Assembly: GCF_039595295.1 (NCBI RefSeq)
Contig: NZ_JBCNLU010000023.1
Location: forward strand, 2,665 to 66,664
Direction: 5' to 3'
Source of the DNA: Roseateles sp.
GTDB taxonomy: Bacteria; Pseudomonadota; Gammaproteobacteria; Burkholderiales; Burkholderiaceae_C
DNA: 64,000 nucleotides
Of this stretch, positions 8,687 through 44,270 are shown one piece after another. A program made the translations under genes and the position numbers. The first letter of the stretch is position 1. Every line of letters starts with the position of its first letter. The notes below the pieces were generated by a model. It saw only the letters and a program-made list of their open reading frames with translations, was not told where the DNA came from and did not search any database.

Positions 8687-9097
8687 ATGACCGCCATGCT
8701 CCGATTCACGAATCCCGCCGGGCTCTATGACCCGGCACCGAATGGCTACTCGCATGTGGCGACCGTCGACGGGCCGGCACGGCTGGTCTTCGTCGCCGGG
8801 CAAGGCGGGGAGGATGCCCAGGGGCGGCTGGCCGAGGACTTCGGCGCCCAGGTGGATCAGGCGCTGGAGAACCTGCAGATCGCGCTGGCGGCAGCGGGGG
8901 CGCGGGTGAGGGATGTCGTCAAGCTGACGGTGCTCGTCGTCGATCACTCGGAGGCCAGGCTGTTCCTGCTCGGCGAGGCGATCAAGGCGCTTTGGGGGGA
9001 ACATCCGACGCCGGCTTGCACCTTGATTCCGGTGCCGAGGCTGGCGCTGGATGGGATGCTGTTTGAGATTGAGGCGACGGCGGCAGTGGCTGCATAG
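8687..9097 (+). CDS. RidA/YjgF/YER057c/UK114-family protein
   Basis: [29 protein letters not shown]...DVVKLTV, P.CTLI.V.RLA...LFEIEA. Confidence 0.88.
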
Positions 9098-9141
9098 CGC
9101 GGAGCTCCGGTGCGCTCTGGGCTGCGACGGCCCTCACCCCA

Positions 9142-9173
9142 ACCGGCGGATCGACCGGCGGATCGACCGGCGG
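9142..9173. repeat. 12-bp tandem repeat ACCGGCGGATCG, 2.7 copies
   Basis: Read directly from the sequence. Confidence 0.7.
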
Positions 9174-9276
9174 CGCGCCTGCGACGTATCGGCGTGTAGC
9201 AAGGGCGTCGGGCAATCGCACGACCTGCGCGAGGCTCGCGCCAGTCCCGGTCCCGGCGCGACCGAAACGGTCGGAC

Positions 9277-9294
9277 TAACTCTTTCGAGGGATG
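9277..9294 (+). promoter_or_regulatory. 18-bp motif TAACTCTTTCGAGGGATG, identical to 27914-27931 on the minus strand
   Basis: Exact match between two intergenic regions; regulatory role inferred. Confidence 0.6.
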
Positions 9295-9346
9295 CCTCGG
9301 CGCTCCCGCGCCTTGCGCCGGCGAGGTGGCGGCTCCTATGATGGGT

Positions 9347-9371
9347 TTCATGTAGTGTTCCCTACATTGAA
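9347..9371. promoter_or_regulatory. Palindromic operator TTCATGTAG-N6-CTACAT(T)GAA, also present at 24436-24459
   Basis: Inverted repeat ending 6 nt before the ATG at 9378. Confidence 0.6.
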
Positions 9372-14570: not shown

Positions 14571-14811
14571 GGAGATCGCGCCTTGCGGACGGCGACGGGG
14601 CATACGGCGGTCATCTCGGTGGAAACCCTCGTATGAGAGGAGCCGCCGCTTGGTTGGATTGGTCGAGGAAAGGGGCTCTGGTCATATCGACGACATCGCG
14701 GACACGAGCTCGGATGGCCCGGACACCGCGATCCGCCGACCCGTCGGCAGCCGGTCGCGACCGAGTGCGCGACGCGCGCCGCCGGGCATCCCCTGACCCA
14801 AGGAGTTGACG

Positions 14812-15480
14812 ATGAACCACCATGAAATTCCCCTGTTCCCGCCGCGGCGCTTCCAGCCGCAGCGCCTGCTGCTCGCCGCGACGCTGGGCTGCGCGTTGAT
14901 GGCCGGCCTGATGTCGGTCGCGCTGGCCGAGCCGGCCGCCTCGGCCACGACGGGCCCCGTGACCCGCGACCAGGTCGTCGCCGATCTGAAGGCCTATCAG
15001 GACTCGGGCCTGGCCGCGCTGGAGTCGGACGAGTCGCAATCGAAGATCGGCACGGCCGAGTGGCGCGCGGCGCGTCTGCGCTATCTCGAGTTGCGCGGCA
15101 TCCCGGCCGACGGCGCGGTCAAGCCGGCGCTGTCGCGCCAGCAGGTGCTGACCGATCTGAAGTTCTACCGCGAGTCCGGTCTGGCCGACGTCGAGCGCCG
15201 TGATGGGGAGGAGTCCAATCAGTCCGCCGCCCTCGTCGCCGCGCAGGAGCGCTACGACCAGCTCACGATGATGGACATGATGGACCGCCCGCTGACGCGC
15301 GCCGAAGTCGTCGCCGATCTGCAGATTTATCGCGAGTCCGGCCTGGCCGCCTATGACCGCAGCGAGGGCGACGTGCAACGCAGCAGCGCCGGTTATCAGC
15401 AGGCGCTGGCCCGCTACAAGCAGCTCAAGCGCGACGGTCATTACCAGCATCTGGTGATGGCGCTCGGCAAGTCGAGCTGA
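14812..15480 (+). CDS. Exported DUF4148-like protein with three internal repeats
   Basis: AGGAG RBS; signal peptide; TRDQVVADLKAYQDSG / SRQQVLTDLKFYRESG / TRAEVVADLQIYRESG. Confidence 0.7.
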   Translation: MNHHEIPLFPPRRFQPQRLLLAATLGCALMAGLMSVALAEPAASATTGPVTRDQVVADLKAYQDSGLAALESDESQSKIGTAEWRAARLRYLELRGIPADGAVKPALSRQQVLTDLKFYRESGLADVERRDGEESNQSAALVAAQERYDQLTMMDMMDRPLTRAEVVADLQIYRESGLAAYDRSEGDVQRSSAGYQQALARYKQLKRDGHYQHLVMALGKSS

Positions 15481-15601: not shown

Positions 15602-15672
15602 GGCGCCCCACTCCGACCTCCGTTCCTGCATTCTTTTCCCCCTCGACCCATCCGCAACCCGTGGAGCCCGCG

Positions 15673-16854
15673 ATGACGCTCTCCCTCCTCGCTCTCGGCG
15701 CCGTCGCGCTGACCCTCGCCCTGATCGCCGGTGCCGCGTTGGTCGACTGGCCGCGGCGCTCGTTCGCGCTGATCCTGCTGGCGATGTCCAGCGTCGGCGT
15801 GACCAGCCAGGCCGCCTCTCCGCCCGTGGAAGGCATGGCCCCCGCCTTCACCGGCGCCACCGGCTGGCTCAACTCCCCGCCCATCGACCTGAGCGCGCAG
15901 CGCGGCAAGGTCGTCGTGGTGAGCTTTTGGACCTACTCCTGCATCAACTGCCTGCGCGTGCTGCCCTACGTGCGCGCCTGGTCGCAGCGCTATGCGAAGC
16001 AAGGCTTGGTCGTCGTCGGCGTGCACTCGCCCGAGTTCGGCTTCGAGAAGGACCCCGCCAACGTCACCCGCGCGGTCAAGGACCTCAAGCTGACCTACCC
16101 GATCGCGCTGGACGACGGCTTCAAGGTCTGGCGTGCCTACGGCAACCGCTTCTGGCCGGCGCTCTACATCGTCGATGCCCAGGGGCGAATCCGCCATCAC
16201 CAGTTCGGCGAGGACGGGTCGCCCGAGACCGAGCAGATCATCCAGACCCTGCTGCGCGAGACCATGCCGCCCGCACCCACGACCTCGACCACCGTGGCGG
16301 CCAAGCCCGCCGCCGCGGCGGCGACGGCCACGCCGACCTCCCCATCGACGCCCGCGCCGATGGACACCGATCTCAGCGGCGTCGGCATGCCGGCGGACCT
16401 GGATCATCTGCGCTCGCCCGAGAGCTACATCGGCTACGCCCAGGCGACCAGCATGGCCGGAGCGAGCGCGCTGTCCCGCGACCGCTCGCGGCGCTACGTC
16501 GCGAGTCAGCTGGACCTCAATGAATGGACGCTCTCCGGCGCATGGACCGTCGGCGCCGAGTACGCCACCGCCGACGAGGCGAACGCATCCCTCGCCGTGC
16601 GTTTCCACGCGCGCGACGTGAACCTGGTGATGGGCCCGCCGAGCGACGGCGGTCCGGTGAAGATCCTCGTGACCATCGACGGCCAGCCGCCCGGCGAGGA
16701 CCACGGCGTCGACATCGACGCGCAAGGCAACGGCATGGTGGACGCCACGCGGCTCTACCAGCTGGTGCGCCAGCGCGCGGTGCAACGCGACCGGCGCGTG
16801 GAGATCCGCTTCCTCGGCACCGGCGCGCGGACCTACGCCTTCACCTTCGGTTAA
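15673..16854 (+). CDS. DipZ-like exported thioredoxin/redoxin protein
   Basis: WLNSPP..L..RGKVVVVSFWTYSCINC; VGVHSPEF; NRFWPA.Y; SPESYIGY; RTYAFTFG C-terminus. Confidence 0.85.
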   Translation: MTLSLLALGAVALTLALIAGAALVDWPRRSFALILLAMSSVGVTSQAASPPVEGMAPAFTGATGWLNSPPIDLSAQRGKVVVVSFWTYSCINCLRVLPYVRAWSQRYAKQGLVVVGVHSPEFGFEKDPANVTRAVKDLKLTYPIALDDGFKVWRAYGNRFWPALYIVDAQGRIRHHQFGEDGSPETEQIIQTLLRETMPPAPTTSTTVAAKPAAAAATATPTSPSTPAPMDTDLSGVGMPADLDHLRSPESYIGYAQATSMAGASALSRDRSRRYVASQLDLNEWTLSGAWTVGAEYATADEANASLAVRFHARDVNLVMGPPSDGGPVKILVTIDGQPPGEDHGVDIDAQGNGMVDATRLYQLVRQRAVQRDRRVEIRFLGTGARTYAFTFG

Positions 16855-16937
16855 CGAGCTCATCTCTTCGTATAGGGCGGCCGCCGCGGGGCCGCCCGCA
16901 GTGCTACCGTGCGCGCCAGCGCGATCAGGTGACCGTC

Positions 16938-17624
16938 ATGCAGCAAGTGTTTTCCCAGCCCGGCAAGCCGGCCCCCCACATCGCCGGCCAGGCGGACGCT
17001 GCGGTGCGCCGCACCGTGTTCATCGTCGACGACGAGGACCTGATCCGGACCTCGCTGGCCAGCTTGCTGCGCTCGATGGAACTAGAGGTGAAAGACTTCC
17101 CCTCGACCGCGGCCTTCCTCGCCGCGCCCAAGGTCAGCGGTCCGTCCTGTCTGGTGCTGGACGTGCGGCTGCGCGGTGAAAGCGGGCTGGCCTTCCAGCA
17201 GTCGCTGGCCGGCCGCGGCCTGGGCCACATGCCGGTGATCATCATGACCGGCCATGGGGATGTCTCCATGACCGTGCGGGCGATGAAGGCCGGCGCGCGC
17301 GACTTCCTCGAGAAGCCGTTCCGCGACCAGGACATGATCGACGCGGTCATCGCCGCGCTGGAGCTCGATGCGAAGCGGCTGGTCGTCGAGCGCTCGCTCG
17401 AGGAGCTGCGGGGCTGCTGGGCGTCGCTCACGCCGCGCGAGCGCGAGGTGCTGGAGCACGTCGCCTCCGGTCGTCTGAACAAGCAGATTGCCGGGGAGAT
17501 GGGCATCGCCGAGATCACCGCCAAGATCCACCGCGGCCAGGGCATGCGCAAGATGCGATCGCGCTCGGTGGCGGAGCTGGTGCGCAAGATGCAGGCGCTC
17601 GGCGTGATCCGCGAGACCGTCTGA
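16938..17624 (+). CDS. FixJ/TodT-type response regulator (REC + LuxR HTH)
   Basis: VFIVDDED, CLVLDVRL, MTGHGD, KAGARDFLEKP, LTPREREV...NKQIA. Confidence 0.92.
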   Translation: MQQVFSQPGKPAPHIAGQADAAVRRTVFIVDDEDLIRTSLASLLRSMELEVKDFPSTAAFLAAPKVSGPSCLVLDVRLRGESGLAFQQSLAGRGLGHMPVIIMTGHGDVSMTVRAMKAGARDFLEKPFRDQDMIDAVIAALELDAKRLVVERSLEELRGCWASLTPREREVLEHVASGRLNKQIAGEMGIAEITAKIHRGQGMRKMRSRSVAELVRKMQALGVIRETV

Positions 17625-17664
17625 GCCCCGGAGCCCGCGCGTGTCGATCAGCCCCTCCGCCGTG

Positions 17665-18111
17665 ATGGCCGACCCGGATGCCCCGGTCGCCTCGGCACTT
17701 CCGGCCGCTGCGGTCGCCGCCGCCACCACCATCGTCGCCGTCGTTGACGACGACCCCTTCGTGCGCGCGGCCACCGGCAGCCTGGTGCGGGCTTTCGGCT
17801 GGGAGGCTCACACCTTCTGCTCGGCCGAGGACTACTTGGCGTCGGGCCTCGCGGCGCGCACCGCCTGCCTGGTCTGCGACATCCAGATGGAGAGGCTCGA
17901 CGGCATCGGGCTGCTGGCGCGCTTGCAGAAGGACGGCGTCGCGCCGCCGACGCTGTTCATCACGGCCTTGACATCGGAGACGGTGCGGCGCCGCGCCTTG
18001 GGGCAGGGCGCGCTGCACGTCATCGACAAACCGATCGATGCGAATGAGCTGGAGGAGTGGGTGCAGCGGGCGCTGGCGTCGGGGCCGCGAGGCCGCGCGT
18101 CAGGCGGCTGA
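17665..18111 (+). CDS. Single-domain response regulator
   Basis: VAVVDDDPFVR, CLVCDIQM..LDG, LFITA, IDKP. Confidence 0.85.
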   Translation: MADPDAPVASALPAAAVAAATTIVAVVDDDPFVRAATGSLVRAFGWEAHTFCSAEDYLASGLAARTACLVCDIQMERLDGIGLLARLQKDGVAPPTLFITALTSETVRRRALGQGALHVIDKPIDANELEEWVQRALASGPRGRASGG

Positions 18112-19528
18112 CCAGCAGCAGCACGGTCGCGTTCAACGCGAGTCCGACGATGCCGATGTTGAGCTGATGCACCCAGGCCGGCGCGAAGGGCAGCAGCTCG
18201 CGCGTGCCGGCGCCGCTGACCACGGTCGCGGCCACGAAGCCGACGCCGACGACGATCCCGGCCATCACGCCGTAGCGGTTGGCATAGGGGCGGCCGATCA
18301 GCGCGCACAGCAGCGCCGGCGCCAGCTGCGTCACGACGCCGAAACCCATGAGCAGCAAGGCCACGATGCTGGAGCCGCCGCGCAGCGTCAGCGCGACCGC
18401 GATGAGCGTCAGCACCGGCGCACCCAGACGCGACACGAGCATCAGGCGCGCGTCGTCCGCGCCCGGATGCAGCGGCCGATAGAGGTTGCGCGCCAGCAGC
18501 GTCGAGGCCGAGATCAGCATGATCGATCCCGGCACCAGCGCGGTCAGCATGCCGGCCGCGCCGATGACGCCAACAAACCAGGGATCGAAGGTCTGCAGCG
18601 AGAGCTTGAGCAGCGCCAGATCGATCTGACCGCCGCTCAGGCCCGGCACCTTCAGCACCGCGGCATAGCCGGCGAACATCGCGAACAGCATCACCAGCGC
18701 GTAGAGCGGCATCACCACGGCGTTCTTGCGGAAGCTGCGCTCGGTGCGGGCGGTGAAGACCGCACTGAAGGCATGCGGCCACAGGTACATGCCCAGCGCC
18801 GAGAGCGCCACCGTCGACAGGAACCACACGCCGCCGCGGCCGGGTTCGGCCAGCGCGAGAAAGCCGGGCCGGGCGGCCTCGATGCTGTCGAACATCGGGC
18901 CCAGGCCGCCGTAATGGTGGAAGGGCAGGTACAGGCCAAGGAAGACGCAGACGACCAGCACCAGTACGTCCTTGACGACGGCCGTCATCGCCGAGCCATG
19001 GATGCCCGACAGCATCACGTAGACCGTCATCACGCTGGCGCCCAGCCACACGGCGGCGGCCGGCGACAGCGCGCCGTAGGAGGTGATCTCGACGATCAGG
19101 CCCAGGCCCTTCATCTGCACCACCAGATAAGGCACCAGCGCGAGCAGCGCGACGGCCGCGACCAGCAGGCCCAGCGCGGGGCTGTCGTAGACCTTGGCGA
19201 AGATCTCGGGCTGGGTCATCGCGCCGTGCCGCCGGGCCAGGCGCCAGATCGGCGGCAGCAGCCAGTAGGACATCACGAAGGCCAGGGAGGTGTAGACCAG
19301 GATGTAGAGCGCCGCGCCGCCGTGGCCGTAGGCGTAGCCGCTGGCACCGAGGAAGGTGAAAGTGGTGTAGAGCTCGCCGGCCATCAGCACGAAGACCAGC
19401 AGCGCGGAGAAGCCGCGGCCGCCCACGCTCCATTGCGCCAGGTCCATGGTCACGCCGCGCCGCGCGCGCAGCGCGATGGCGACGGACAACGCCAGCGGCA
19501 GCAGGATGACGACAGCGGCGAGGTTCAT
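18020..19528 (-). CDS. Sodium:solute symporter (SSS) family transporter
   Basis: QWSVGGRGF..LMAGELYTTFTFLGASG; many hydrophobic helices. Confidence 0.9.
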   Translation of the reverse strand: MNLAAVVILLPLALSVAIALRARRGVTMDLAQWSVGGRGFSALLVFVLMAGELYTTFTFLGASGYAYGHGGAALYILVYTSLAFVMSYWLLPPIWRLARRHGAMTQPEIFAKVYDSPALGLLVAAVALLALVPYLVVQMKGLGLIVEITSYGALSPAAAVWLGASVMTVYVMLSGIHGSAMTAVVKDVLVLVVCVFLGLYLPFHHYGGLGPMFDSIEAARPGFLALAEPGRGGVWFLSTVALSALGMYLWPHAFSAVFTARTERSFRKNAVVMPLYALVMLFAMFAGYAAVLKVPGLSGGQIDLALLKLSLQTFDPWFVGVIGAAGMLTALVPGSIMLISASTLLARNLYRPLHPGADDARLMLVSRLGAPVLTLIAVALTLRGGSSIVALLLMGFGVVTQLAPALLCALIGRPYANRYGVMAGIVVGVGFVAATVVSGAGTRELLPFAPAWVHQLNIGIVGLALNATVLLLVSRLTRGLAAPTPAPAAPTPPAHSHRSVCR

Positions 19529-19788
19529 GAGCGATGGCCGCGTGGCGCGTTGGTGGCGGGCAGCGGGGCCTCGCCGCCGTCGATGCCGGTCTCGGCCTCC
19601 TCACCGCGGTTCGCGGGATCGAGCCGGTAGACGATCGCCATCACGACGGCGCACAGCAGCGTGCCCGAGATGATCCAGGCCATGAAGAAGGGCAGGCCGG
19701 CGACAAAGGGCCGCACGCGGTCGGCGAAGACGACGCCCAGCACCGCATGCGCGACGGGTAGCAGTGCGAGCCAGTGACGCAGCTTCAT
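19525..19788 (-). CDS. DUF3311-type small membrane protein coupled to the symporter
   Basis: GGAGG RBS; RVRPFVAGLPFFMAW; two TM segments; stop/start overlap with the SSS gene. Confidence 0.8.
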   Translation of the reverse strand: MKLRHWLALLPVAHAVLGVVFADRVRPFVAGLPFFMAWIISGTLLCAVVMAIVYRLDPANRGEEAETGIDGGEAPLPATNAPRGHRS

Positions 19789-19801
19789 CCGGCCTCCGGG
19801 T

Positions 19802-22681
19802 TCATGATCGTGTCGATCGCGCATGCACGCCGCGACCGGTGGCGGCAAGCGCGCGCAGCACCACGTCCGGCGTCGCCGGCGCCTCGCGCACGCGGGCGCC
19901 GGTGGCGTGGTGGATCGCGTTGAGGATGGCGGCGGCGGTGGGCACCAGCGCCGGCTCGCCGATGCCCTTGGCGCCGTAGGGGCCGATGGCCGTCGGAGCC
20001 TCGACGAAGAGCGTCTCGACCTCGGGCACGTCGTGCACCGTCGGGATCAGGTAGTCGTGCAGGTTGTCGTTGCGGCCGGGCAGGTACTGCTCCATCAGCG
20101 CGAGTCCCACGCCTTGCGCGACCGCGCCTTCGATCTGGCCTTCGAGCAGGGTCGGGTTGACCATGCGGCCCACGTCGTGCGCCGCCACGACGCGGCGCAC
20201 CCGCACGCGGCCGGTCTCGATGTCGACCTCGACCTCGGCCATCTGCGCGCCGAAGGCGTAGGTCGCGTAGGGACGGCCCTGGCCGGCGGCGTTCAGCGCC
20301 ACGGTGGGCGGGTCGAAGCGCTCCTCGGCGGCGATGGCGTAGCCGTGGACGTCGACGGGCAGGTCGGCCAAGGACAAGCGTCGCGCGACGCCTGTCCCGT
20401 CCGCTTGCGTGTCTGACCCCGTCTCAGCGCCGGTGCCGTCATCGCTTCGGACGCCGACCCAGCCAGGACCGAACACGACTGGCGCATCGGCCGGCGCGTC
20501 CAGCAGCGAGCGCACGCGGCGCAGCAGCGCGGTGCCGGCGAGGAAGGTCGCTCGCCCGGTGACGAAGGTCTGGCGCGAGGCCGAGGTGCGGCCGCAGTCC
20601 GGCGTCAGATGCGTGTCCGCGCCGACGATGTGCAGGCGCGTGATGGGCACGCCCAGCGCGTCGGCGGCGATCTGCGGGATCACCGTGTTGGCGCCTTGTC
20701 CCGCGTCGACCGCGCCCTGATGCAGCACCAGCGTGCCGTCGGGCCGCAGCCCGATGCGGACCGTCGACGGATTGGGCGACGCGGTGTTGCCGCAGCCGTA
20801 GAAGAAGGCCGCCATGCCGACGCCGTAGCGAAGGTGAGGGCGCGCCGCCCCGTTTCGTTCGTGGGCACGCTCGCGCGCCGCGATCCAATGCGGCCGCAGC
20901 GCATCGAGGCACGCCACCATGCCGACGCTGTCATCGAGTACCTGCCCCGTGGGCAGCGAGTCGCCCGGCCTCAGCGCGTTGCGGGCGCGGAACTCCAGCG
21001 GATCCCAACCGCCGTGCAGCGCGAGCTCGTCGATCAACTGCTCCTGCGACATCGTCGTCTGCGGCACGCCGAAGCCGCGGAAGGCGCCGGCCGGCGTGAT
21101 GTGCGTGTGGACGGCGCGGGCGCGCGCGGCGTAATGCGGCACACGATAAGGGCCGCCCGCATGCACCGGTACGCGGTTGGCGACCGCCGTTCCCCACGAC
21201 GCATAGGCGCCGGTGTTGTAGTCGCCTTCGAATTCGACCGCCCGCAGCAGACCTTGCTCATCGGCGGCGAGCGTGGAGACGATGCGCGCCGGATGCCGTT
21301 TGGTCGAGGTCGCCATCGATTCCTCGCGCGTGAACACGATGCCCACGGGGCGATCCAGATGCCAAGCCGCGACTGCGAGCAACGGTTGCACCGTCATGTC
21401 CAGCTTGCCGCCGAAGCCGCCGCCCACGGCGGTCGGCACGACGCGGATGCGCTCCGGCGCGACGCCCATCACCCTCGCGAGGTCCTCGCGATGCGGATGC
21501 GGCGCCTGCGTCGGCGAGCGGACTTCGATCGTGTCGCCGACGCGCCGTGCCCAGCCGGCTTCGGGCTCCAGGTAGGCGTGCTCGACGAAGCTCGACGAGA
21601 AGCGGCCGCTGACGACGTGCGCCGCCTCGCGGATCGCGGCCGCCGCGTCGCCGCGCTTCACGCGGCCTTCGATCAACTGGTTGCCGACGCGGCTCGCGTG
21701 AAGCTGCGGGCTGTCGGGGTGGGCGGCGTCCTCGACGCTGAAGACGGCGGGCAGCGGCGTCCAGGTGACCGGGAAGTCGGCGAGGTCCAGCGCGGCGACG
21801 GCCTCGCGCTCACCGGCGATCAGCGCGACGGCTTCGAGGCGGTGACGGGTCTCGCTCTCGGCGAGGACCGGCTGGTCCGCATAGGCCGGCGCGATGCCGT
21901 GGAGGTTGCGGCCCGGCACGTCGGCGTGCGTGAACACGCGGACGATTCCGGGATGGGCTTGGACGAAGCCGTCGACGTCGCCGAGCGTGAAGCGTGCGCG
22001 GTGATGCGGGCTGCGGACCGCGCGCAGGAAGAGGGCGTCGGCGGGAATGCCGTCGGCGCCGAAGTGCTGGCTGCCGTCGACCTTGCAGGGGCCGTCCAGG
22101 CGGGTGAGCGGCTGGCCGACGTTGATGCCGGTCTCGGGCGGCGGCGTGAGCGGGCGCGAATCGGCGCCGGTGGCGACCTCGACGATCGCGTCGACGATCT
22201 TGCGATAGCCGGTGCAGCGACACAGCACGCCGTCGATCGCGGCGCAAGCGGTGGCGCGGTCCGTCACCCGGCCCGCATCGATCGCGGCCGCCGCGGCGGT
22301 GAGCATCGCCGGGATGCAGAAGCCGCATTGCACCGCCTGGTGCGCGAGGAAGGCGTGCTGCAGGCGCGCGCCGGTGCGACTGGATTCGGCCAGGCCCTCG
22401 ACGGTCAGAACGCGACAGCCGTCGAGCTGCGCGACCGGCGTGATGCAGGCGTAGCGGGGCTCGCCGTCGACGACGATGCTGCAGCTGCCGCAGTCGCCCT
22501 GGCCGCAACCGACCTTGGTGCCGGTCAGGCCCAGGTCCTCGCGCAGGAAGGCGACGACGGTGCGCGAGCGATCGGCAGGCAGCGTGCGGCGCTGGCCGTT
22601 GATCTCGGCCCAGGCGGTGTCGCCCGCATCGGCGCATGCGTCGGCGGAGGGCGGCGTCGTGACTTCATTTGGAGGCGACAT
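19802..22681 (-). CDS. Xanthine dehydrogenase-family Mo hydroxylase, fused 2x[2Fe-2S] + Moco-binding subunit
   Basis: CGQGDCGSC, QCGFC, LCRCTGY; GGGFGGK, AFRGFG, QIEG, KGIGE catalytic Glu. Confidence 0.9.
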   Translation of the reverse strand: MSPPNEVTTPPSADACADAGDTAWAEINGQRRTLPADRSRTVVAFLREDLGLTGTKVGCGQGDCGSCSIVVDGEPRYACITPVAQLDGCRVLTVEGLAESSRTGARLQHAFLAHQAVQCGFCIPAMLTAAAAAIDAGRVTDRATACAAIDGVLCRCTGYRKIVDAIVEVATGADSRPLTPPPETGINVGQPLTRLDGPCKVDGSQHFGADGIPADALFLRAVRSPHHRARFTLGDVDGFVQAHPGIVRVFTHADVPGRNLHGIAPAYADQPVLAESETRHRLEAVALIAGEREAVAALDLADFPVTWTPLPAVFSVEDAAHPDSPQLHASRVGNQLIEGRVKRGDAAAAIREAAHVVSGRFSSSFVEHAYLEPEAGWARRVGDTIEVRSPTQAPHPHREDLARVMGVAPERIRVVPTAVGGGFGGKLDMTVQPLLAVAAWHLDRPVGIVFTREESMATSTKRHPARIVSTLAADEQGLLRAVEFEGDYNTGAYASWGTAVANRVPVHAGGPYRVPHYAARARAVHTHITPAGAFRGFGVPQTTMSQEQLIDELALHGGWDPLEFRARNALRPGDSLPTGQVLDDSVGMVACLDALRPHWIAARERAHERNGAARPHLRYGVGMAAFFYGCGNTASPNPSTVRIGLRPDGTLVLHQGAVDAGQGANTVIPQIAADALGVPITRLHIVGADTHLTPDCGRTSASRQTFVTGRATFLAGTALLRRVRSLLDAPADAPVVFGPGWVGVRSDDGTGAETGSDTQADGTGVARRLSLADLPVDVHGYAIAAEERFDPPTVALNAAGQGRPYATYAFGAQMAEVEVDIETGRVRVRRVVAAHDVGRMVNPTLLEGQIEGAVAQGVGLALMEQYLPGRNDNLHDYLIPTVHDVPEVETLFVEAPTAIGPYGAKGIGEPALVPTAAAILNAIHHATGARVREAPATPDVVLRALAATGRGVHARSTRS

Positions 22682-23519
22682 GGTTCACCTCCATCTCGAT
22701 GCCGCAGTGCGCGGCGGCGCGCTCGATGGCGACGCGCACCAGATGGCGGCGCAGCGCGGCGCTGCCGCGGTGGTCGTCGATGGGCGAGAGCTCCGGCATC
22801 GGCGTGTCGCGGATGAGGTGCGTCAGGTCGACGGGGCGGGCGCCCTCGAGTCTCGCCTCGAGACCGCGCAGCCGCACCGGGACGTCCGAGGCGCCGCCAA
22901 TGGCGATCGCGGCGCGCGCGGCGACGCCGTTCTCGTTCCATCGCAGGCAGAGCGCCGCCGAGACCGTGGCCAATGCCGTCCCGTCGCGATTGGCGAGCTT
23001 GATGAAGGCGCCGCGCTCATGCGGAGCGGGCGTCGGGATGAGCACGGCGCTCAGCAACTCATCCGGCCTCAGCGCGGTGTGGCGCCGCCCGAGCAGGAAC
23101 TGATCGAGCCGCAATCGCCGGACACCGGCCAGGCTGGCGAGCTCGACCTGCGCCTCCAGCGCGAGCAGCGGCGGCACGCCGTCGGCGATCGGCGAGGCGT
23201 GGCAGAGGTTGCCTCCCAGCGTTCCCTGCACCCGGATCTGCCGGGAGCCGACCTGGCCCGCCGCCTCGCGCAGCACGCCCGGCGTGAGCGGCGATTGCTC
23301 GATCGCTTCCCAGGTCGCGGCGGCGCCGATGCGCAGATGGCCGTCCGTCAGCGCGATGGGCTTCAGCGACGCGACCCGGCCGATGTCCAGCCACGTCGAC
23401 CCGGCGACCGGGCGGGACGGATCGGCATAGACGTCGGTGCCGCCGCAGAGCACGCGCCGCGGATGGCGCGCGAGCTCGGCCAGCGCCTCGTCGAGGGTGT
23501 GGACGCGAAGATGGTTCAT
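22665..23519 (-). CDS. FAD-binding subunit of the Mo hydroxylase (CoxM-like)
   Basis: LCGGTD, LRIGAAAT, VGSRQIRVQGTLGGNLCHASPIAD. Confidence 0.9.
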   Translation of the reverse strand: MNHLRVHTLDEALAELARHPRRVLCGGTDVYADPSRPVAGSTWLDIGRVASLKPIALTDGHLRIGAAATWEAIEQSPLTPGVLREAAGQVGSRQIRVQGTLGGNLCHASPIADGVPPLLALEAQVELASLAGVRRLRLDQFLLGRRHTALRPDELLSAVLIPTPAPHERGAFIKLANRDGTALATVSAALCLRWNENGVAARAAIAIGGASDVPVRLRGLEARLEGARPVDLTHLIRDTPMPELSPIDDHRGSAALRRHLVRVAIERAAAHCGIEMEVNHVASK

Positions 23520-23693: not shown

Positions 23694-24356
23694 TCAATCC
23701 GCTCGCACCACGCGCTGCAGGCTGTCGATGACGAAGCCTTCCCACTGCTCCGCGGCGACGCCGTTGTCGATGGAATCGCCCAGGAAGGCGGACATCGTGT
23801 AGCGGTTGGAGGTGAAGAAGTAGGACGCCGACACGATCAGCAGATAGACGTCGCGCGCGTTCAGCGCCGGTCGGAACAGTCCCCGCTCCGCGCCCGTCGT
23901 CAGGATGCGGTCGATCAGCCGCACCGCGTGCGAGGAGTACTCCGTCGCCTTGTCCGACTTCTGCACGTGCTTGCCCTTGAGCAGGTTCTCCGTGTTGAGC
24001 AGGTTCACGAACTCGGGATGCCGCCGGTAGTAGTCGATCTTAAAGCGGATCACCGTGTTCAAGGCCTCCACCGGATCGTCCGGGTCGGCGACGCACTTGG
24101 CCTCGGCCTCGTCCATGCGCTGGTAGATGCCTTCCAGCACCGCGATGAACAGCCCCTCCTTGCTGCCGAAGTAGTAATAGATCATCCGGTCGTGCGTCTT
24201 CGCGGAGCTCGAGATCTTCTCGATGCTGCCGCCGTCGTAGCCGTACCGGGCGAAGACCTTGGTCGCCGCCTTGAGGATGCTGTCGCGGGTCGCCTGGGCG
24301 GCGGCCTCGCGCATGCCGGTGCCGCGCACCGCCTTGGTCTGCTTGGTCTGGGCCAT
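23694..24356 (-). CDS. TetR-family regulator (RutR-like)
   Basis: TRDSILKAATKVFARYGYDG...MIYYYFGSKEGLF; LLNTENL. Confidence 0.9.
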   Translation of the reverse strand: MAQTKQTKAVRGTGMREAAAQATRDSILKAATKVFARYGYDGGSIEKISSSAKTHDRMIYYYFGSKEGLFIAVLEGIYQRMDEAEAKCVADPDDPVEALNTVIRFKIDYYRRHPEFVNLLNTENLLKGKHVQKSDKATEYSSHAVRLIDRILTTGAERGLFRPALNARDVYLLIVSASYFFTSNRYTMSAFLGDSIDNGVAAEQWEGFVIDSLQRVVRAD

Positions 24357-24435
24357 GAATGTTCCGGTGCCCGGAGCGCCGCCATCCTGGGCGGCGTCTC
24401 CGTCCCGACGCGGGATCGCCGCGCCGGATGTTGAT

Positions 24436-24459
24436 TTCATGTAGCAGGCACTACATGAA
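24436..24459. promoter_or_regulatory. Perfect palindrome TTCATGTAG-N6-CTACATGAA, candidate TetR operator
   Basis: 9-bp arms, about 80 bp upstream of the tetR start. Confidence 0.7.
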
Positions 24460-24733
24460 TGTGGCGATGATACGCAGCGTCATGACTTCCGGCAATCGGG
24501 GGATCGCGCGGGGCGCGCCCCGCCGTGCGAGCCGCGTCCGCGCGCGAGCAGCGCGCGGGATCTCGATCGCGGATCGATACCAAGGTATGAGCGCCGCAGG
24601 CCGCTCGTTCAATTCTCCGCGGCAAGTGCCGCTGCTCTGATGGCGGACATCGCGGGGCGCCGCTCGCGCGTCCCCGGATCAACCCGCCGAACGGCCCTGC
24701 GCCGACTCGGCAACCCGCCAATCAGAGGCCCAC

Positions 24734-25564
24734 ATGTCCAAACGCATTCTTCGCACGCTCACCCTGTCGGCGCTGGCCGCCTTCGCCGTCGCTCTGCCGG
24801 TCCTGGCCAAGGACGCCGCGTCCGCTTCGGCCGCTCCGACCGCCGCGTCGGCGACGACCAAGCCCACCATCGTGCTCGTTCACGGCGCCTTCGCCGACGC
24901 CTCCAGCTGGAACGGCGTCGCCGGCGAGCTGCGCGGCAAGGGCTATCCCGTCGTCGCCGTCGCCAATCCGCTGCGCAGCGTCTCGGGCGACGCCCGCTAT
25001 ACCGCGTCCATTCTGGACAAGATCCCCGGCCCGGTCGTGCTGGTCGGCCACTCCTACGGCGGCTCGGTGATCAGCAACGCGGCGGTCGGCCAGACGCGCG
25101 TGAAGGCGCTGGTCTTCGTGTCGGCCTTCGCGCCGGAAACCGGTGAATCCGTGGTCCAGCTCGCGGGCAAGTTCCCCGGCAGCACGCTGGGCGACGCGCT
25201 GGCCGCGCCGGTGCCGCTGCCCGAAGGCGGCGTGGACCTGTACATCGACCAGGACAAGTTCCGCAACCAGTTCGCCGCCGACGTGAAGCCGGACGCCGCG
25301 CGCCTGATGGCCGTGGGCCAGCGCCCGGTGGCCGAGGCCGCGCTGAAGGAAGCCAGCCAGGGCACGGCCTGGAAGACCCTGCCGAGCTATTACGTCTACG
25401 GCAGCGCCGACAAGAACATTCCGCCCGCCGCGATGGCCTGGATGGCCGAGCGCGCCCATGCGCGCAAGACACTCGTGATTCGCAACGCCTCGCATGTGGT
25501 GATGGTCAGCCATCCGCATGAAGTCGCCGCGCTGATCGAGACCGCCGCGCACGACGCCGAGTAA
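24734..25564 (+). CDS. Exported alpha/beta hydrolase
   Basis: Sec signal; VLVHGAFAD; GHSYGG nucleophile; ASHVVMVSHP His. Confidence 0.88.
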   Translation: MSKRILRTLTLSALAAFAVALPVLAKDAASASAAPTAASATTKPTIVLVHGAFADASSWNGVAGELRGKGYPVVAVANPLRSVSGDARYTASILDKIPGPVVLVGHSYGGSVISNAAVGQTRVKALVFVSAFAPETGESVVQLAGKFPGSTLGDALAAPVPLPEGGVDLYIDQDKFRNQFAADVKPDAARLMAVGQRPVAEAALKEASQGTAWKTLPSYYVYGSADKNIPPAAMAWMAERAHARKTLVIRNASHVVMVSHPHEVAALIETAAHDAE

Positions 25565-25652
25565 GCCCCCGCGCCCGCGGCGTCCGCCCCTTGCCTGGCC
25601 GCCGCGGGCCGTGCTTTCCCGCCACTCCCCCTGTCCCCCCAAGGAGATCCTC

Positions 25653-26678
25653 ATGACGAATGAATCTTCCCGCCGCGACTTCCTGTCGCTCGCCGCCGTC
25701 GGTGGCGCCGGTCTGGCGCTGTCCGGCATCACCGGTCTGACCGGTGGCGCGCTCGCCGCGACGGCCGCCACCGGCCGCGAAGCTTTCGGTCCGGTGCGCC
25801 AGATCAAGGCCGGCCTGCTCGACGTCGGCTACGTGGACCTCGGCCCGCGTGACGGCACGCCGGTGATGCTCTTCCACGGCTGGCCCTACGACATCCACAC
25901 CTACGAAGAAGTCGCGCCGCTGCTGGCCGCGCAAGGCTTCCGCGTGATCGTGCCGCACCTGCGCGGCTACGGCTCGACGCGCTTCCTGTCCGATGCGACG
26001 CTGCGTTCGGGCCAGCAGACCGCGCTGGCCGCCGACACCATCGCGCTGATGGACGCGCTGGGCATCCGCCGCGCGATCATGGCCGGCTGCGACTGGGGCG
26101 CGCGCAATGCCTGCGTGGTCTCGGCGCTGTGGCCCGAGCGCTGCCAGGCGCTGGTCTCCGTCAGCGGCTTCCTGGTGCTGAACCGCGCCACCGCGCTGAC
26201 GCCGCTGTCGCCGGCCGACGAGTTCTCGTGGTGGTACCAGTACTACTTCGCGACCGAGCGGGGCCGCATCGGCTACGAGAAGAATCTCAAGGAGTTCGCG
26301 CGCTTCATCTGGCGCCAGGCCTCGCCGAAGTGGAACTTCGACGACGCCACCTTCGATCGCGCGGCGGCCAGCCTGGTCAATCCGGATCAGGTCGCGGTGG
26401 CTGTACACAACTACCGCTGGCGCATCGCCGCGGCCGAGGGCGACCCGCAGTACGAGGCGCTCGAGACGCGTCTGGCGCAGGTGCAGTCGGTGTCGCTGCC
26501 GTCCATCACGATGGAAGGCGACGCCAACGGCGCGCCTCACCCGGCGCCCGCGGCCTATGCCTCGCGCTTCAAGGGCAAGTACGAGCACCGCAACCTGAGC
26601 GGCGGCATCGGCCACAACCTGCCCCAAGAGGCGCCGGCGGACTTCGCCAAGGCCATCATCGACCTGAGCAAGTGGTAA
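25653..26678 (+). CDS. Tat-exported alpha/beta hydrolase, epoxide hydrolase/haloalkane dehalogenase type
   Basis: SRRDFL twin-arginine signal; HGWP; GCDWG Asp nucleophile; GIGHNLPQE; AAGGAG RBS. Confidence 0.85.
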   Translation: MTNESSRRDFLSLAAVGGAGLALSGITGLTGGALAATAATGREAFGPVRQIKAGLLDVGYVDLGPRDGTPVMLFHGWPYDIHTYEEVAPLLAAQGFRVIVPHLRGYGSTRFLSDATLRSGQQTALAADTIALMDALGIRRAIMAGCDWGARNACVVSALWPERCQALVSVSGFLVLNRATALTPLSPADEFSWWYQYYFATERGRIGYEKNLKEFARFIWRQASPKWNFDDATFDRAAASLVNPDQVAVAVHNYRWRIAAAEGDPQYEALETRLAQVQSVSLPSITMEGDANGAPHPAPAAYASRFKGKYEHRNLSGGIGHNLPQEAPADFAKAIIDLSKW

Positions 26679-27171: not shown

Positions 27172-27813
27172 TCAGAGCTCGATGATCCCGCGCTTGAGCG
27201 CGATGGTGACCGCATGCGTGCGGTCCTTGGCCGAGAGCTTGCCCAGGATGGTCCGGATGTGGACCTTGACCGTCTCCTCGGTCAGCGAGAGGCTCTCGGC
27301 CACTTCACGATTCGCCTGACCCAGCGCGACCAGCCGCAGCACCTGGGTCTCGCGCAGCGACAGCGTGCGGCTGTGCGCGTGCTGGGCGATGGCGGCCTCG
27401 ATCTCCGCCGGCACCATCAGCCGACCCGCGTGCACGCCGCGGATGGTGTCCACCAGGTCGGTGCGCAGCAGGCCCTTGAGCAGATAGCCGGAGGCGCCCG
27501 CCTTCATCGCCCGCATGGCCTGGAAGTCGCCGGGGAAAGTGGTGAGGATGACGATGCGCGCCTCGGGGAACTCGCGACGGATCGCGGCCATCGCCTCGAT
27601 GCCGTCCATGTCTCGCATGCGCAGGTCCATCAGCGTGACATCGGGCAGGTGCTGGCGGAAGCGGGTGAGCGCATCCAGCCCGTTGCCCGCCTCGGCCACC
27701 AGGCGCATGTCCGGCTCGGCGTCCACGACGGTGGCGATGCCACTGCGCATCAGCGCATGGTCGTCGACGGCCATCACAGTGATGGGCCGGGGGCTCGGGG
27801 TGGTGTCGGTCAC
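27172..27813 (-). CDS. NarL/LuxR-family response regulator
   Basis: MAVDDHALMR, PDVTLMDLRM, ILTTF, GYLLK, LSLRETQVL...NREVA; start either 27813 (GTG) or 27858. Confidence 0.92.
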   Translation of the reverse strand: MTDTTPSPRPITVMAVDDHALMRSGIATVVDAEPDMRLVAEAGNGLDALTRFRQHLPDVTLMDLRMRDMDGIEAMAAIRREFPEARIVILTTFPGDFQAMRAMKAGASGYLLKGLLRTDLVDTIRGVHAGRLMVPAEIEAAIAQHAHSRTLSLRETQVLRLVALGQANREVAESLSLTEETVKVHIRTILGKLSAKDRTHAVTIALKRGIIEL

Positions 27814-27913
27814 AGGGGCGGCAAGAAGGACGCGATCGGCCGGATCGCGAAAGCCCAAGCGTAGCCGCTGTGCCGGCCGCCGGCTGACGTACCGTTGCCC
27901 CCGGTTGCGAAGT

Positions 27914-27991: not shown

Positions 27992-30900
27992 ATGACGTCC
28001 GATCCCCACCGTTCGCCGCTGCGCCAAGGCTTCTGCCAGCGCTTCTTGCAGCGTCTCCTGCAACGCTGTGCCCTGCGGTCGCTGCGGCGCCTTGCCGCGA
28101 CCGTGGTCGTCCTGTGGGCGTCCGTGGCGGGCCTCCCGGCGGCCTGGGCGCTGGATGCGGATCTGCGGCTGAGCCAGTTCCAGCATCGCGCCTGGACGGC
28201 CGCGGACGGCGCGCCGACCGAGACCTGGGCGATGACGCAGTCCACCGACGGCCTGATCTGGATGGGCGGACCCGGCGGGTTGCTGCGCTTCGACGGTCTG
28301 CGCTTCGAGCGCTTCCCGACTTCGAGGGCGACGCCGTTCCCGGCCGGCGCGGTGTTGCGGGTGATGGCCGCGTCCAACGGCGATCTGTGGGTGAGCTTCT
28401 TCCCCCGCGGGCTGGTGCGGATCCGGCAGGGCGAGGTCTGGCAGGTGCCGGAGTCCGAGCCGGTCGCCGCGCAGCGGGTGCGCTACCTGTCCGAGGATGC
28501 CGACGGGCGGATCTGGGTCGGCGGCGAATCCGCCTTCTTCCGCTTCGACGGCGAGCACTGGACGCGGGGCGACGAGATCCCGGGCTTCGGCGGCATGCCG
28601 CTGGGCGGGCTGGTGATCGACGGCCGCGGCACGGTGTGGGTGTGCGCGCGGGACCGGCTGGTGCAGGCGCTGCCGCGCGGCGCGACCAGTTTCAAGAGCG
28701 TGGGCGATTGCACCGACGCGCGCAGCATGCCGGTGACGGACGGCCGGGTCTGGATCGTCGACGCGAAGTCGGCGCGGCGCATGCCCGAGGTCTCCCAAGC
28801 CCCGCTGCTGCCCCGGCTGACCTGGGGCGCGAGACGCTCGTCGCCGACCTGGCTCGATCGCGAGAGCAACCTGTGGTCGCTGTACTGCCCCGCCGGGCTC
28901 TGTCGGCGAAAGCTGCCGATCTCCACCTCCGACGCCATCGACCTCCCCGAACCCCCCGAACGCATGGGCGTCGCCGAGGGCCTGAGCGGCGACTTCGGCA
29001 TGACGATGATGGAGGACGTCGAGGGCAATCTGTGGGTCGCGACCAAGACCGGTTTGGACCGGTTCCGGCGCGCGGCGCTGGTCCCGGCGGAGCTGCCGCG
29101 CGGGACCAGCAACTACGCGCTCGCGGCGGAGCCCGACGGCAGCGTGTGGACGGCGGCATCCGCGACGGGGACCTATTCGAAATGGCGCTTGAGCGGCGTC
29201 GGCGATGCGGCGTCCCTCCCGGCACCGAATGCGCAGGTCACCGCGGTCGGACGCGACGCGCAGGGGCGTCTGCTGATGGGCGGATCGAGCGGCCTGTGGC
29301 GCAGGGAGGGGGAGCGCTGGGTCGAGCTGCCACGGCCCGTCGGCGCGCAAGGCCGATGGGTGCTGGGCATCGCGGCGCAGGGCGGGAGCATGCTGGCCTC
29401 GTTCCAGAAGCTGGGCGTGCAGCGCTTCGACGACGGGGTCTGGCAGCCGCTGGCGGTGCCCGGCGAGCCGGGTCCGGTCGAGGCGGCCTTGGCGGTCGCG
29501 CCGGATGACGCGGTCTGGCTGGGGCTCAAGAACAACCGCGTGCTGCGCTTGAAGGACGGTGCGGTGCGCCGCTTCGGACCGGAGGAGGGCGTCGATGTCG
29601 GCGATCCCTTCCTGGTTTATGCAGGGCGCACGCGCGTGCTGGTGGCCGGCGGGCTGGGTGTGGACGTGTTGCACGGGGATCGTTTCGTGCCGCTGATGTC
29701 CGAGTCCACGGATGCGCTGATGGGCGTGTCGGGCATCGTGGAGACGGCCAACGGCGACCTCTGGCTCAACGGCCGCAAGGGCGCCGTGCAAGTGACCAAG
29801 GCCGATCTGGACGCCTTCCTCGCGGATCCTGGAAAGCCTTTGCGGCATGCGCTGATCGATGCGCTCGACGGCTATCCGGTCAGCGCGACCTCGTTCTGGC
29901 CGCAGCCCAGCGTCGTGGAGGCCGCGGATGGGCGGCTCTGGTTCGCGGGCATCACGGGCGTCGCCTGGCTGGATCCGCGCCGTCTGACGCGCAACCCGGT
30001 GGCGCCGGTCGCGCGCGTGACCGGCGTGCGCGCCGACGGCGTCGAGTACCCGCCCGGCGCGCCGCTGCGGCTGCCGATCAAGACCTCGATGCTGGAGCTG
30101 CGCTTCTCGGCGGCCAGCCTGTCCATTCCGGAGCGGGTGCGCTTCCGGTTCAAGCTGGAGGGCCAGGATCGCGGCTGGCGCGACAGGACTTCGCGGCGCG
30201 AGACCCTGTACACCAACCTCGCGCCGGGGCGCTACGTCTTCCACCTGCAGGCCTTCAACAACGACGGTGTGCCGACGGCGGGCGAGACCCTCCAGGTCAT
30301 CGAGATCCCCGCGGCCTTCTATCAGACGCTGTGGTTCCGCGCCGCCTGCGTGCTGGCGGCCATCGCGCTGATCTGGGCGCTGCACCGGTTGCGCATGCGG
30401 CAGGCGGCACGCGCCGCGCGCGAGAAGCTGCGCACCCGGCTGGCCGAGCGCGAGCGCATCGCGCGCGAGCTGCACGACACGCTGCTGCAGGGCGTGCAGG
30501 GACTGATCCTGCGCTTCGAGGCGAACGCGACGCGGCTGCCGATCGATCACCCCGCCCGCGCGGCCATGGAGCAAGACCTGGCCCTCGCGGATGAGGTGCT
30601 GGACGAAAGCCGCCGGCGGGTGATGGCGCTGCGCTCGACGCCGGCCGCGGCGGGAAGCCTGGCGCGAGCGCTGGAGGACGTGATCGCGCAACTGGCGCGG
30701 GACTACGACGGCGAATGCCGCGTGGAGATCGAGGGCCGTGAGCGTCCCTTGAAGCCTGAGGTCCGCGAGGAGCTGCGATTGATCTTCGGCGAGGCGTTGC
30801 TGAACGCCTTCCGGCATGCCGACGCGACGCGGATGACGCTGTGCCTGCGCTACGGCTGGCGGGGGCTGCGGGTCACGCTGAGCGACGATGGGCGGGGCAT

Positions 30901-31135
30901 TGCGCCGAAGCTGCTGGCGGACGGTCGGCCGGGTCACCTGGGGCTGGTCGCGATGCGCGAGCGCGCGAGGGCGATCGGGGCGCGTTTGTCCGTGGCCAGT
31001 CGCGTGGGGAAGGGGACCACCGTGGAGCTGCGGCTGCGCGCGTCGAAGGCGTATGCCGCCGGGCCGATCGAATCGGCCCATACAGCCGATTCAGCCGATG
31101 CGGTCGGTCCGGTGAAGGACAATCCCGCCCCATGA
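27992..31135 (+). CDS. Sensor histidine kinase: periplasmic beta-propeller + Y_Y_Y + HisKA_3 + HATPase
   Basis: Repeated D.DG.LW motifs; [14 protein letters not shown]...[10 protein letters not shown]; TM helix; [15 protein letters not shown]; DDGRG, GHLGL. Confidence 0.9.
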
Positions 31136-31392: not shown

Positions 31393-31476
31393 GCGCCGGA
31401 TCAGAAGCTCCTCAGTAACCGGGCGCCATGTCATAGGCAATCTCGGCGCTGCGGTTGAAGTACCCCTCCGTTGCAG

Positions 31477-31492
31477 TATGATGATCATCATA
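31477..31492. promoter_or_regulatory. Perfect palindrome TATGATGATCATCATA, candidate TetR operator 1
   Basis: 14 nt before the tetR ATG; TATGA-N6-TCATA. Confidence 0.7.
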
Positions 31493-31506
31493 TTAGTATC
31501 CACCCC

Positions 31507-32172
31507 ATGGCACCGATCAACCCATCCCCCCGCAACGCGAAGACCGACCGCAAGGAGGCGTCGCGCGAGCGCATTCTGGAAGTGGCCTCGCGCGGCGTGA
31601 GGCGCGCCGGCTTCCACGGGATCGGCGTGGCCGACGTGATGAAGCAGGCCGGGCTGACGCATGGCGGTTTCTATGCTCATTTCGAGTCGCGCGATGAGCT
31701 GCTCGGCGCGGCTGCAGCGCGGGCGGGGCAGGACAGCCGGGCGCTCTTCGAGGACCTATTGAAGCGTCTCACCGCGGCCGGCGTGCCGCCGTTCCGGGCG
31801 ATGGTCGAGACCTATCTGCACGAGAGCGGCATCGGCAACTGCGAGAACGGCTGCCCCGTGGCTGCGTTGGTCTCGGAGATGCCGCGGCAATCCGAATCGG
31901 TGCAGCAAGTTTCGCGCGCGCTGATGACGCACCTGCATCGCATGGTGGGCGAGGCGCTCGGCGACCGCGCGCCGGCCGACGAGGCGTGGTCCATCGTCAG
32001 CAGTCTGGTCGGCGCGCTGCAGCTGGCCCGGGCTTTCGGCGACAACGATCAGGGGCGAGCGGTGCTCGACAGCACCAAGCAGGCGCTGCTGTCCCGCTAC
32101 GGCGAAGAGGCGAAAGCGAGCACCGTCAAGTCCAACAAGGAAACGAAGTCCGACGCCAAGCGTCGGCATTGA
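31507..32172 (+). CDS. TetR-family regulator
   Basis: SRERILEVAS...VADVMKQAGLTHGGFYAHFESRDEL; NGCP. Confidence 0.92.
   Translation: MAPINPSPRNAKTDRKEASRERILEVASRGVRRAGFHGIGVADVMKQAGLTHGGFYAHFESRDELLGAAAARAGQDSRALFEDLLKRLTAAGVPPFRAMVETYLHESGIGNCENGCPVAALVSEMPRQSESVQQVSRALMTHLHRMVGEALGDRAPADEAWSIVSSLVGALQLARAFGDNDQGRAVLDSTKQALLSRYGEEAKASTVKSNKETKSDAKRRH

Positions 32173-42032: not shown

Positions 42033-44270
<2,238 letters not shown>

Follow-up and report, generated by a model that had tools for sequence, protein, structure and literature searches.

The window analysed here, the whole 64-kb stretch of Roseateles DNA, carries two closely matching palindromes, one on the predicted promoter of a tetR operon that includes a molybdenum-hydroxylase cassette and the other on the putative promoter of an operon headed by a giant hybrid kinase. 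From a comparison with about 100 related loci it is considered quite probable that the TetR protein encoded at 23694-24356 binds both dyads, represses both the tetR operon and the kinase operon, and is released by a ligand. A metabolite-sensing TetR would in that case probably switch the kinase operon as well as its own, because the palindrome shared by the two promoters is indicated as the operator of that TetR.

Two matching palindromes in the window

Site A, the predicted operator on the promoter of the tetR operon, is found at 24436-24459 (core 24439-24456) and reads TTCATGTAG-CAGGCA-CTACATGAA. Its arms are perfect over 9 bp, as the first-pass annotation had recorded for a dyad upstream of tetR. 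That annotation also described a near-identical dyad 15 kb away, and this corresponds to site B, the predicted operator on the promoter and 5' leader of the kinase operon (9347-9371, core 9350-9367; TTCATGTAG-TGTTCC-CTACATTGAA), at a distance of 15.07 kb from site A. The 18-bp core ATGTAG-N6-CTACAT is perfect at both sites. As described, the spacer is 6 bp in each, and 6 nt separate the end of site B from the kinase ATG (9378); the outer right arm of site B, however, contains one inserted T, the only difference from the arms of site A, so that no more than the 18-bp core is common to the two.

Even when two mismatches are tolerated, sites A and B are the only occurrences of the 18-bp pattern in the 64-kb window, against an expected 0.14, and none of 100 shuffles reached two. 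A weight matrix derived from 66 unique sites, all from other genomes, gives 37.6 bits to site A and 34.9 bits to site B, with 2.4 bits at the next best position in the 64 kb and 11.1 as the best of 20 shuffles. Short palindromes do arise by chance, but with these expectations, a score so far above the shuffle maximum and the conservation of the site in orthologues described below, the probability that site B is a chance match is practically negligible. A third exact copy of TTCATGTAG, at 43238-43246, falls within a coding sequence and lacks a partner half-site, and was put down to chance.

Both palindromes contain the triplet CAT (9349-9351 and 24438-24440), and two mechanically called reading frames on the minus strand (8944-9351 and 23694-24440) begin inside them; conservation supports neither of these extensions. 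The longer tetR frame, from an ATG at 24440 within the palindrome, was rejected because relatives conserve the N-terminus MAQTKQTK, which starts at 24356. Third-codon-position G+C was used to pick out real genes.

The spacer of the kinase site (9356-9361) is almost invariant across kinase loci, being TGTTCC, or CGTTCC in L086, whereas those of the tetR operators vary without restriction. CGTTCC is also the spacer of the site next to tetR in Cupriavidus and in Duganella. The near-invariance at the kinase site may be due to overlap with the transcription start or to a spacer preferred by the repressor.

Predicted promoters

A sigma-70 promoter of tetR is predicted at 24467-24495 on the minus strand, with a -35 box TTGCCG (24495-24490), a 17-nt spacer and a -10 box TATCAT (24472-24467). 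It gave 9 of 12 matches in a consensus scan, against 0.0 expected, and is the sole promoter found in the intergenic region between tetR and the divergent hydrolase genes. Operator A starts 7 nt downstream of its -10 box, and in an alignment of nine relatives TTGC, TAT(C/G)AT and the operator are kept at this promoter, the remainder having diverged.

Upstream of the kinase the same scan found no match above threshold, and the promoter at 9313-9342 (plus strand) is therefore inferred, from conserved boxes alone: a -35-like TTGCGC (9313-9318) and, after an 18-nt spacer, a -10-like TATGAT (9337-9342). Aligning the upstream regions of six orthologues reveals three conserved islands ahead of the ATG, namely CTTGC (9312-9316), CCTATGAT (containing the -10-like box, 9337-9342) and the operator, and CTTGC and TATGAT/TATCAT show little or no variation, in these six as in metagenome copies. 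The distance from the -10-like box to the start of operator B is 4 nt. Given the predicted tetR promoter and the inferred kinase promoter, both operators would cover the transcription start, the usual position of a repressor. A search for RNA-seq runs from this organism, or containing this sequence, found none.

The tetR operon and its molybdenum-hydroxylase cassette

The tetR gene (23694-24356, minus strand) encodes 220 aa. In the Pfam assignment a helix-turn-helix (TetR_N, PF00440, E 1.2e-13, residues 27-73) is followed by TetR_C_29, an all-helical domain of the ligand and dimerisation type (PF17938, E 1.6e-35, residues 95-211). The protein is 96% identical to its relative in Mitsuaria (Roseateles) chitosanitabida NBRC 102408 and 72-80% identical to those of other Roseateles/Mitsuaria. 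In the window and in M. chitosanitabida (L001) a GC-rich insertion of about 60 bp lies between operator A and the tetR ATG (24357-24435); other relatives are without it, and there the operator ends some 20-45 nt before the tetR ATG.

On the same strand follow the FAD-binding subunit of a molybdenum hydroxylase (22665-23519; FAD_binding_5 and CO_deh_flav_C), a fused 2Fe-2S and molybdopterin-binding subunit of 959 aa from the xanthine dehydrogenase family (19802-22681; Pfam) and, at the end of the operon, a small DUF3311 membrane protein with an SSF/MctP-like monocarboxylate permease (18020-19848; Pfam DUF3311 and SSF), whose match to MctP in NCBIfam, 210 bits, is below the cut-off. In the window the stretch between tetR and the FAD gene yielded neither a promoter nor a terminator, and in relatives it measures only 9-70 bp; the cassette is therefore presumably co-transcribed with tetR.

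Comparisons with NCBIfam and PDB tie the hydroxylase to no particular substrate. Every NCBIfam match falls under its own cut-off, and the best PDB match is a Desulfovibrio aldehyde oxidoreductase with 404 bits, ahead of xanthine dehydrogenase (268), 4-hydroxybenzoyl-CoA reductase (256) and nicotinate dehydrogenase (233). An identification as nicotinate dehydrogenase is not supported, the E. barkeri enzyme (NDH, 3hrd, 233 bits) being outranked by three other enzymes.

Two alpha/beta hydrolase genes (24734-26678) are divergent from tetR. Further along, the window encodes a second two-component pair, consisting of a NarL-type regulator (27172-27858) and a Reg_prop/Y_Y_Y/HisKA_3 kinase (27992-31135), and beyond the hydrolases an unrelated second TetR of the TetR_C_13 type (31471-32172); neither the pair nor this TetR has an operator in the window. 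The G+C content of the window is about 70%, with no compositional break at the cassette. A plasmid database yielded only distant matches to the tetR region and none to the kinase region, which excludes a known plasmid as the source of the window.

The kinase operon

The giant kinase (9378-14570, plus strand) comprises 1730 aa and unites a Ser/Thr kinase, an AAA_16 ATPase, a GAF, a HisKA and a HATPase_c domain (Pfam) in one polypeptide, the full set of five that characterises the proteins named by NCBI, for its homologues, 'trifunctional serine/threonine-protein kinase/ATP-binding protein/sensor histidine kinase'. Full-length homologues with 55-91% identity occur in many Burkholderiales and in other Proteobacteria. 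On the same strand it is followed by genes, assigned with Pfam, for a DUF4148 protein (14806-15480), a thioredoxin-like redoxin (15661-16854), a response regulator with receiver and GerE domains (16938-17624) and a single-domain receiver (17641-18111), and this order of kinase, DUF4148, redoxin and two response regulators is the same in relatives. A MerR gene (8174-~8600) and a RidA-like gene are situated upstream of the kinase.

Co-occurrence of the motif with the TetR orthogroup

Relatives of the TetR with 51-96% identity were collected from 80 loci, one genome per species, plus one plasmid locus. A site with at most one mismatch lies within 1.3 kb upstream of tetR in 60 of the 80, across the Burkholderiales, and in most of the others a contig end intervenes or the site is slightly farther off. 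The density of sites is 0.665 per kb in the 1.3-kb upstream zone and 0.0145 per kb elsewhere, a difference of about 46-fold, so that a palindromic operator near its own gene and co-conserved with its regulator, the pattern typical of the TetR family, is what the comparison yields. Altogether the dyad accompanies tetR orthologues in about 70 loci across this order, and the orthologous position of operator A is conserved in L001-L009, L083-85, L090 and L092. TetR is the only regulator common to the motif-bearing tetR loci, and its recognition helix, HDRMIYYYFG(S/N)KEGLF, is invariant among orthologues of 51-96% identity. In comparative genomics, such joint conservation of a regulator and a motif is the usual mark of a cognate operator. 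Because the motif follows the orthogroup and the recognition helix is invariant, the dyad is very probably the operator of this TetR; the initial proposal that it serves for autorepression of tetR gains from the approximately 70 loci in which it occurs with the gene as well as from its overlap with the predicted tetR promoter.

Most of the distant loci share a gene cluster in which fpr, tetR and an amidohydrolase gene lie on one side and a 6-hydroxynicotinate-reductase-like gene, a UPF0280 gene, two DUF1185 genes and an ABC binding protein gene are divergent from them. The sites are located in the divergent intergenic region, often in two or three copies 22 bp apart. Such tandem arrays, spaced exactly 22 bp from start to start, were seen in L012-L073 (for example at 4798/4820/4842 in L036 and 8655/8677/8699 in L063), and the spacing, which equals two helical turns, suggests several dimers bound along the same face of the helix. 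In general the orthogroup looks tied to the catabolism of N-heterocycles, because the reductase cluster has been described as a conserved nicotinate-catabolism cluster, proceeding via tetrahydro-6-oxonicotinate, in a Bradyrhizobiaceae strain (PMC3511419). On the chromosome of Burkholderiaceae bacterium RE-10 (L043, ~10250) the tetR orthologue has an in-frame stop near residue 85, and may be a pseudogene or contain a sequencing error.

The same invariance raises the question of which member of the orthogroup acts at the kinase site. As the recognition helix is identical across the orthogroup, any paralogue would recognise the same DNA, and a paralogous TetR encoded elsewhere, for instance in a cluster of the fpr/6-hydroxynicotinate-reductase type, might control or share that site. 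This is distinctly unlikely: in the 80 best loci each Mitsuaria, Roseateles, C. pampae or Duganella genome is represented no more than once, although fpr-type members of 51-58% identity fill the list, and operator B was found only where the cassette TetR is adjacent.

Conservation of the kinase site

Eleven kinase homologues of 50-91% identity were looked up, and a cassette was taken as present when tetR, FAD and MoCo genes lay within 10 kb. Where the kinase is accompanied by a cassette, operator B occurs in all eight loci (the window, L082, L083, L084, L085, L086, L090 and L092) some 5-35 nt ahead of the kinase start and never with more than one mismatch, the proteins being 59-100% identical. 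In contrast, none of the three kinase loci without the cassette, from Variovorax (L087), Paraburkholderia (L088) and Cupriavidus (L089), has the operator, even at three mismatches, although these kinases are 50-57% identical to that of the window and belong to the same operon type, including the GerE regulator. At L091, where the contig ends after the kinase, no operator was found before the kinase.

The sequence of operator B is invariant in L082-L086, L092 and L093-L102 and has one mismatch in L090, where it is present despite a rearranged gene order. The genes upstream of operator-bearing kinases differ (MerR/RidA, a gene of unknown function, an epoxide hydrolase or an aldehyde dehydrogenase), and the flanks of the more distant loci cannot be aligned. 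In metagenome contigs the exact sequence TTCATGTAGYGTTCCCTACAT gave ten matches, of which nine lie directly before kinase orthologues in the same promoter layout; the tenth, in AT-rich non-coding DNA, was dismissed as chance. An element that stays invariant down to 59% protein identity while flanks and upstream genes change behaves as a conserved one, and to this extent the earlier reading of the kinase site as functional is borne out. Because all kinase sites come from one clade, they represent a single evolutionary origin maintained by selection, and not repeated origins.

Conservation also bears on whether the element could act in the RNA, or be a relic, without function, of promoter duplication. 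Only 6 nt separate the dyad from the ATG, and transcription from the inferred promoter, if that is correctly placed, would include it; with the site so close to the start codon the leader would be short and the ribosome-binding site weak, so some effect at the mRNA level, on translation or stability, retains a little probability. A hairpin in the 5' leader is nevertheless poorly compatible with arms of invariant sequence whose variants in the family (ATGTTG, CTAAAT, CTACAA) are one-sided, breaking the pairing and not compensating for it, and with the occurrence of the same sequence in both orientations and in divergent promoter regions that are not transcribed. A relic would not be expected to persist over orthologues of 59-91% identity with diverged flanks. 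Both versions of this explanation are taken together as very improbable.

Another factor might instead bind both dyads, the candidates being the GerE/NarL-type regulator of the kinase operon, the NarL-type regulator at 27172-27858 and the MerR encoded upstream. Two GerE-type regulators are encoded nearby and regulators of this type bind inverted repeats, and the MerR gene (8174-~8600) lies upstream of the kinase. The motif, however, stands beside tetR in about 70 loci that have neither the kinase nor the GerE regulator, kinase operons with the GerE regulator but no TetR cassette have no motif, and L084-L086, L090 and L092 keep site B although no MerR gene precedes their kinase. Binding by one of these factors is thus highly improbable, and the TetR of the cassette is retained as the probable regulator at both sites.

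The kinase operon, the cassette, the two hydrolase genes and the next two-component pair follow one another in the same way in nine or more related genomes and MAGs, and synteny of the kinase operon and the cassette extends throughout the Roseateles/Mitsuaria clade. As judged from gene order, the arrangement is ancestral to the clade and not a recent insertion. The suggestion that the cassette is no passenger therefore agrees with both the clade-wide synteny and the lack of a G+C anomaly. In the rearranged locus L090, tetR is divergent from a 450-aa GAF-HisKA-HATPase_c kinase (19512-21150), and the redoxin and both response-regulator genes lie beyond this kinase, adjoining OsmC and DsbD-like genes, which is another association of the TetR with signalling and redox genes.

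Independent associations with two-component genes

Two independent cases connect the same regulator to two-component genes in other ways. In Cupriavidus pampae (L006) the tetR-FAD-MoCo genes are divergent from a gene for a 318-aa HisKA-HATPase_c kinase, whose match, at 47-49% identity, is with the C-terminal output module of the multi-kinases rather than with the short kinases found alongside them; the start of this kinase gene and its ribosome-binding site are preceded, at about 15 nt, by a copy of the operator, and another is found before tetR. In Duganella (L009) the tetR cassette is divergent from a receiver-GerE regulator gene, the product of which is 47% identical to that of 27172-27858 in the window, and a separate copy of the operator stands some 30 nt ahead of the start of this gene. 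Because of these cases the hydroxylase-linked TetR subclade is, as far as predicted operators indicate, repeatedly wired to two-component signalling genes.

A second dyad

A second dyad, CATAC-N4-GTATG (GATACCAAGGTATG in the window), is located at 24576-24589 in the intergenic region between tetR and the hydrolases, and occurs at the same place in L002-L005, L007, L008, L084, L085 and L092. Degenerate copies are scattered over the kinase operon (14601-14614, 14624-14636 and ~16858-16871), and similar dyads were seen in the kinase-DUF4148 gap of L090, ahead of the kinase genes of L087 (Variovorax) and L091, and, in L087 and L088, between the genes of the two response regulators. There are 19 matches in 444 kb, compared with 6 in 1021 kb of control loci, and the dyad also precedes kinase operons in genera that are without the TetR. 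It may be the site of the GerE regulator of the kinase operon.

A closed two-way circuit can be imagined on this basis, in which TetR would gate the multi-kinase operon through operator B and the GerE regulator would in turn control, through CATAC-N4-GTATG, the alpha/beta-hydrolase genes beside tetR; this is put forward tentatively, as a possibility that is on balance doubtful. If true, the expression of a hybrid eukaryote-like/two-component kinase of about 1700 residues would depend on a specific small molecule, and that molecule would offer an experimental handle on a large signalling family without a known input.

Proposed mechanism

In the mechanism that accounts best for these observations, the ligand-free TetR dimer would bind the 18-bp core ATGTAG-N6-CTACAT at the two promoters. 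At operator A it would shut its own operon (tetR, the FAD subunit, the 2Fe-2S/MoCo subunit, DUF3311 and the MctP-like permease), and at operator B the kinase operon (kinase, DUF4148, redoxin and two response regulators). Binding of a ligand to the TetR_C_29 domain would release TetR and turn both operons on together. This ligand is probably a substrate or product of the hydroxylase, whether heteroaromatic or another monocarboxylate. Repression rather than activation, as well as co-transcription of the operons, we infer from the sequences compared here. The mechanism so predicted, a ligand-released TetR repressor at the transcription start with two predicted operators, is an ordinary one. The novelty lies in the TetR motif and in its link to a giant hybrid kinase operon, neither of which was found described in the literature searches.

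Comparison with known systems

Literature searches found no description of a TetR operator of the ATGTAG/CTACAT type and no characterised regulator of the 6-hydroxynicotinate-reductase cluster, nor any account of what signal feeds into the trifunctional Ser/Thr-kinase/ATPase/GAF/histidine-kinase proteins or of their regulon. With a TetR operator on its promoter, one such kinase operon would offer a concrete and cheap entry point, as the ligand of the TetR would give the condition under which the kinase is produced. The motif ATGTAG-N6-CTACAT is at the same time defined for a large TetR_C_29 orthogroup that was not found characterised, and should be useful for regulon annotation, since this orthogroup appears to control a conserved Burkholderiales cluster resembling a nicotinate-type catabolic cluster.

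The window TetR is like TetR/tetO and QacR/IR1 in having a TetR_N helix-turn-helix, a C-terminal ligand domain and a palindromic operator that overlaps the predicted promoter of its own operon, and for TetR-family repressors ligand-induced release is expected. It differs from these systems in its 18-bp 6-N6-6 palindrome, which matches no described operator found, and in a second predicted operator whose target, 15 kb away, would be a signalling operon instead of an efflux pump or adjacent catabolic genes. The closest solved structure by sequence is PDB 3npi, an uncharacterised TetR-family protein from structural genomics (E 1.3e-25, residues 20-212); the relationship is distant, and the entry gives no function, ligand or operator.

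Among named families the best NCBIfam match is RutR of E. coli (71.4 bits; PDB match 3.8e-13), a catabolic TetR of pyrimidine utilisation which also has targets outside its own operon. An assignment as a RutR equivalog was rejected at 71.4 bits against a TIGR03613 cut-off of 368. The C-terminal domain family of the window TetR (TetR_C_29) is different from that of RutR, and the RutR box, TTGACCAnnTGGTCAA, is unrelated to ATGTAG-N6-CTACAT.

A related catabolic system is the THON-type nicotinate cluster of Burkholderiales, with its arrangement of fpr-tetR-amidohydrolase divergent from the 6-hydroxynicotinate-reductase-like genes, whose TetR is of the same orthogroup (51-58% identity) and has the same helix and operators. 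The subclade of the window TetR (60-96% identity) is, in contrast, attached to the FAD/2Fe-2S/MoCo hydroxylase and the MctP-like permease and not to fpr and the reductase, and only this hydroxylase-attached subclade, not the THON-type cluster, is linked to kinase and response-regulator genes. The window kinase itself shares its full architecture with the trifunctional kinases of Variovorax, Paraburkholderia and Burkholderia at 55-57% identity, but among all trifunctional kinases compared only the members from the Roseateles/Mitsuaria clade, beside a TetR cassette, carry the operator.
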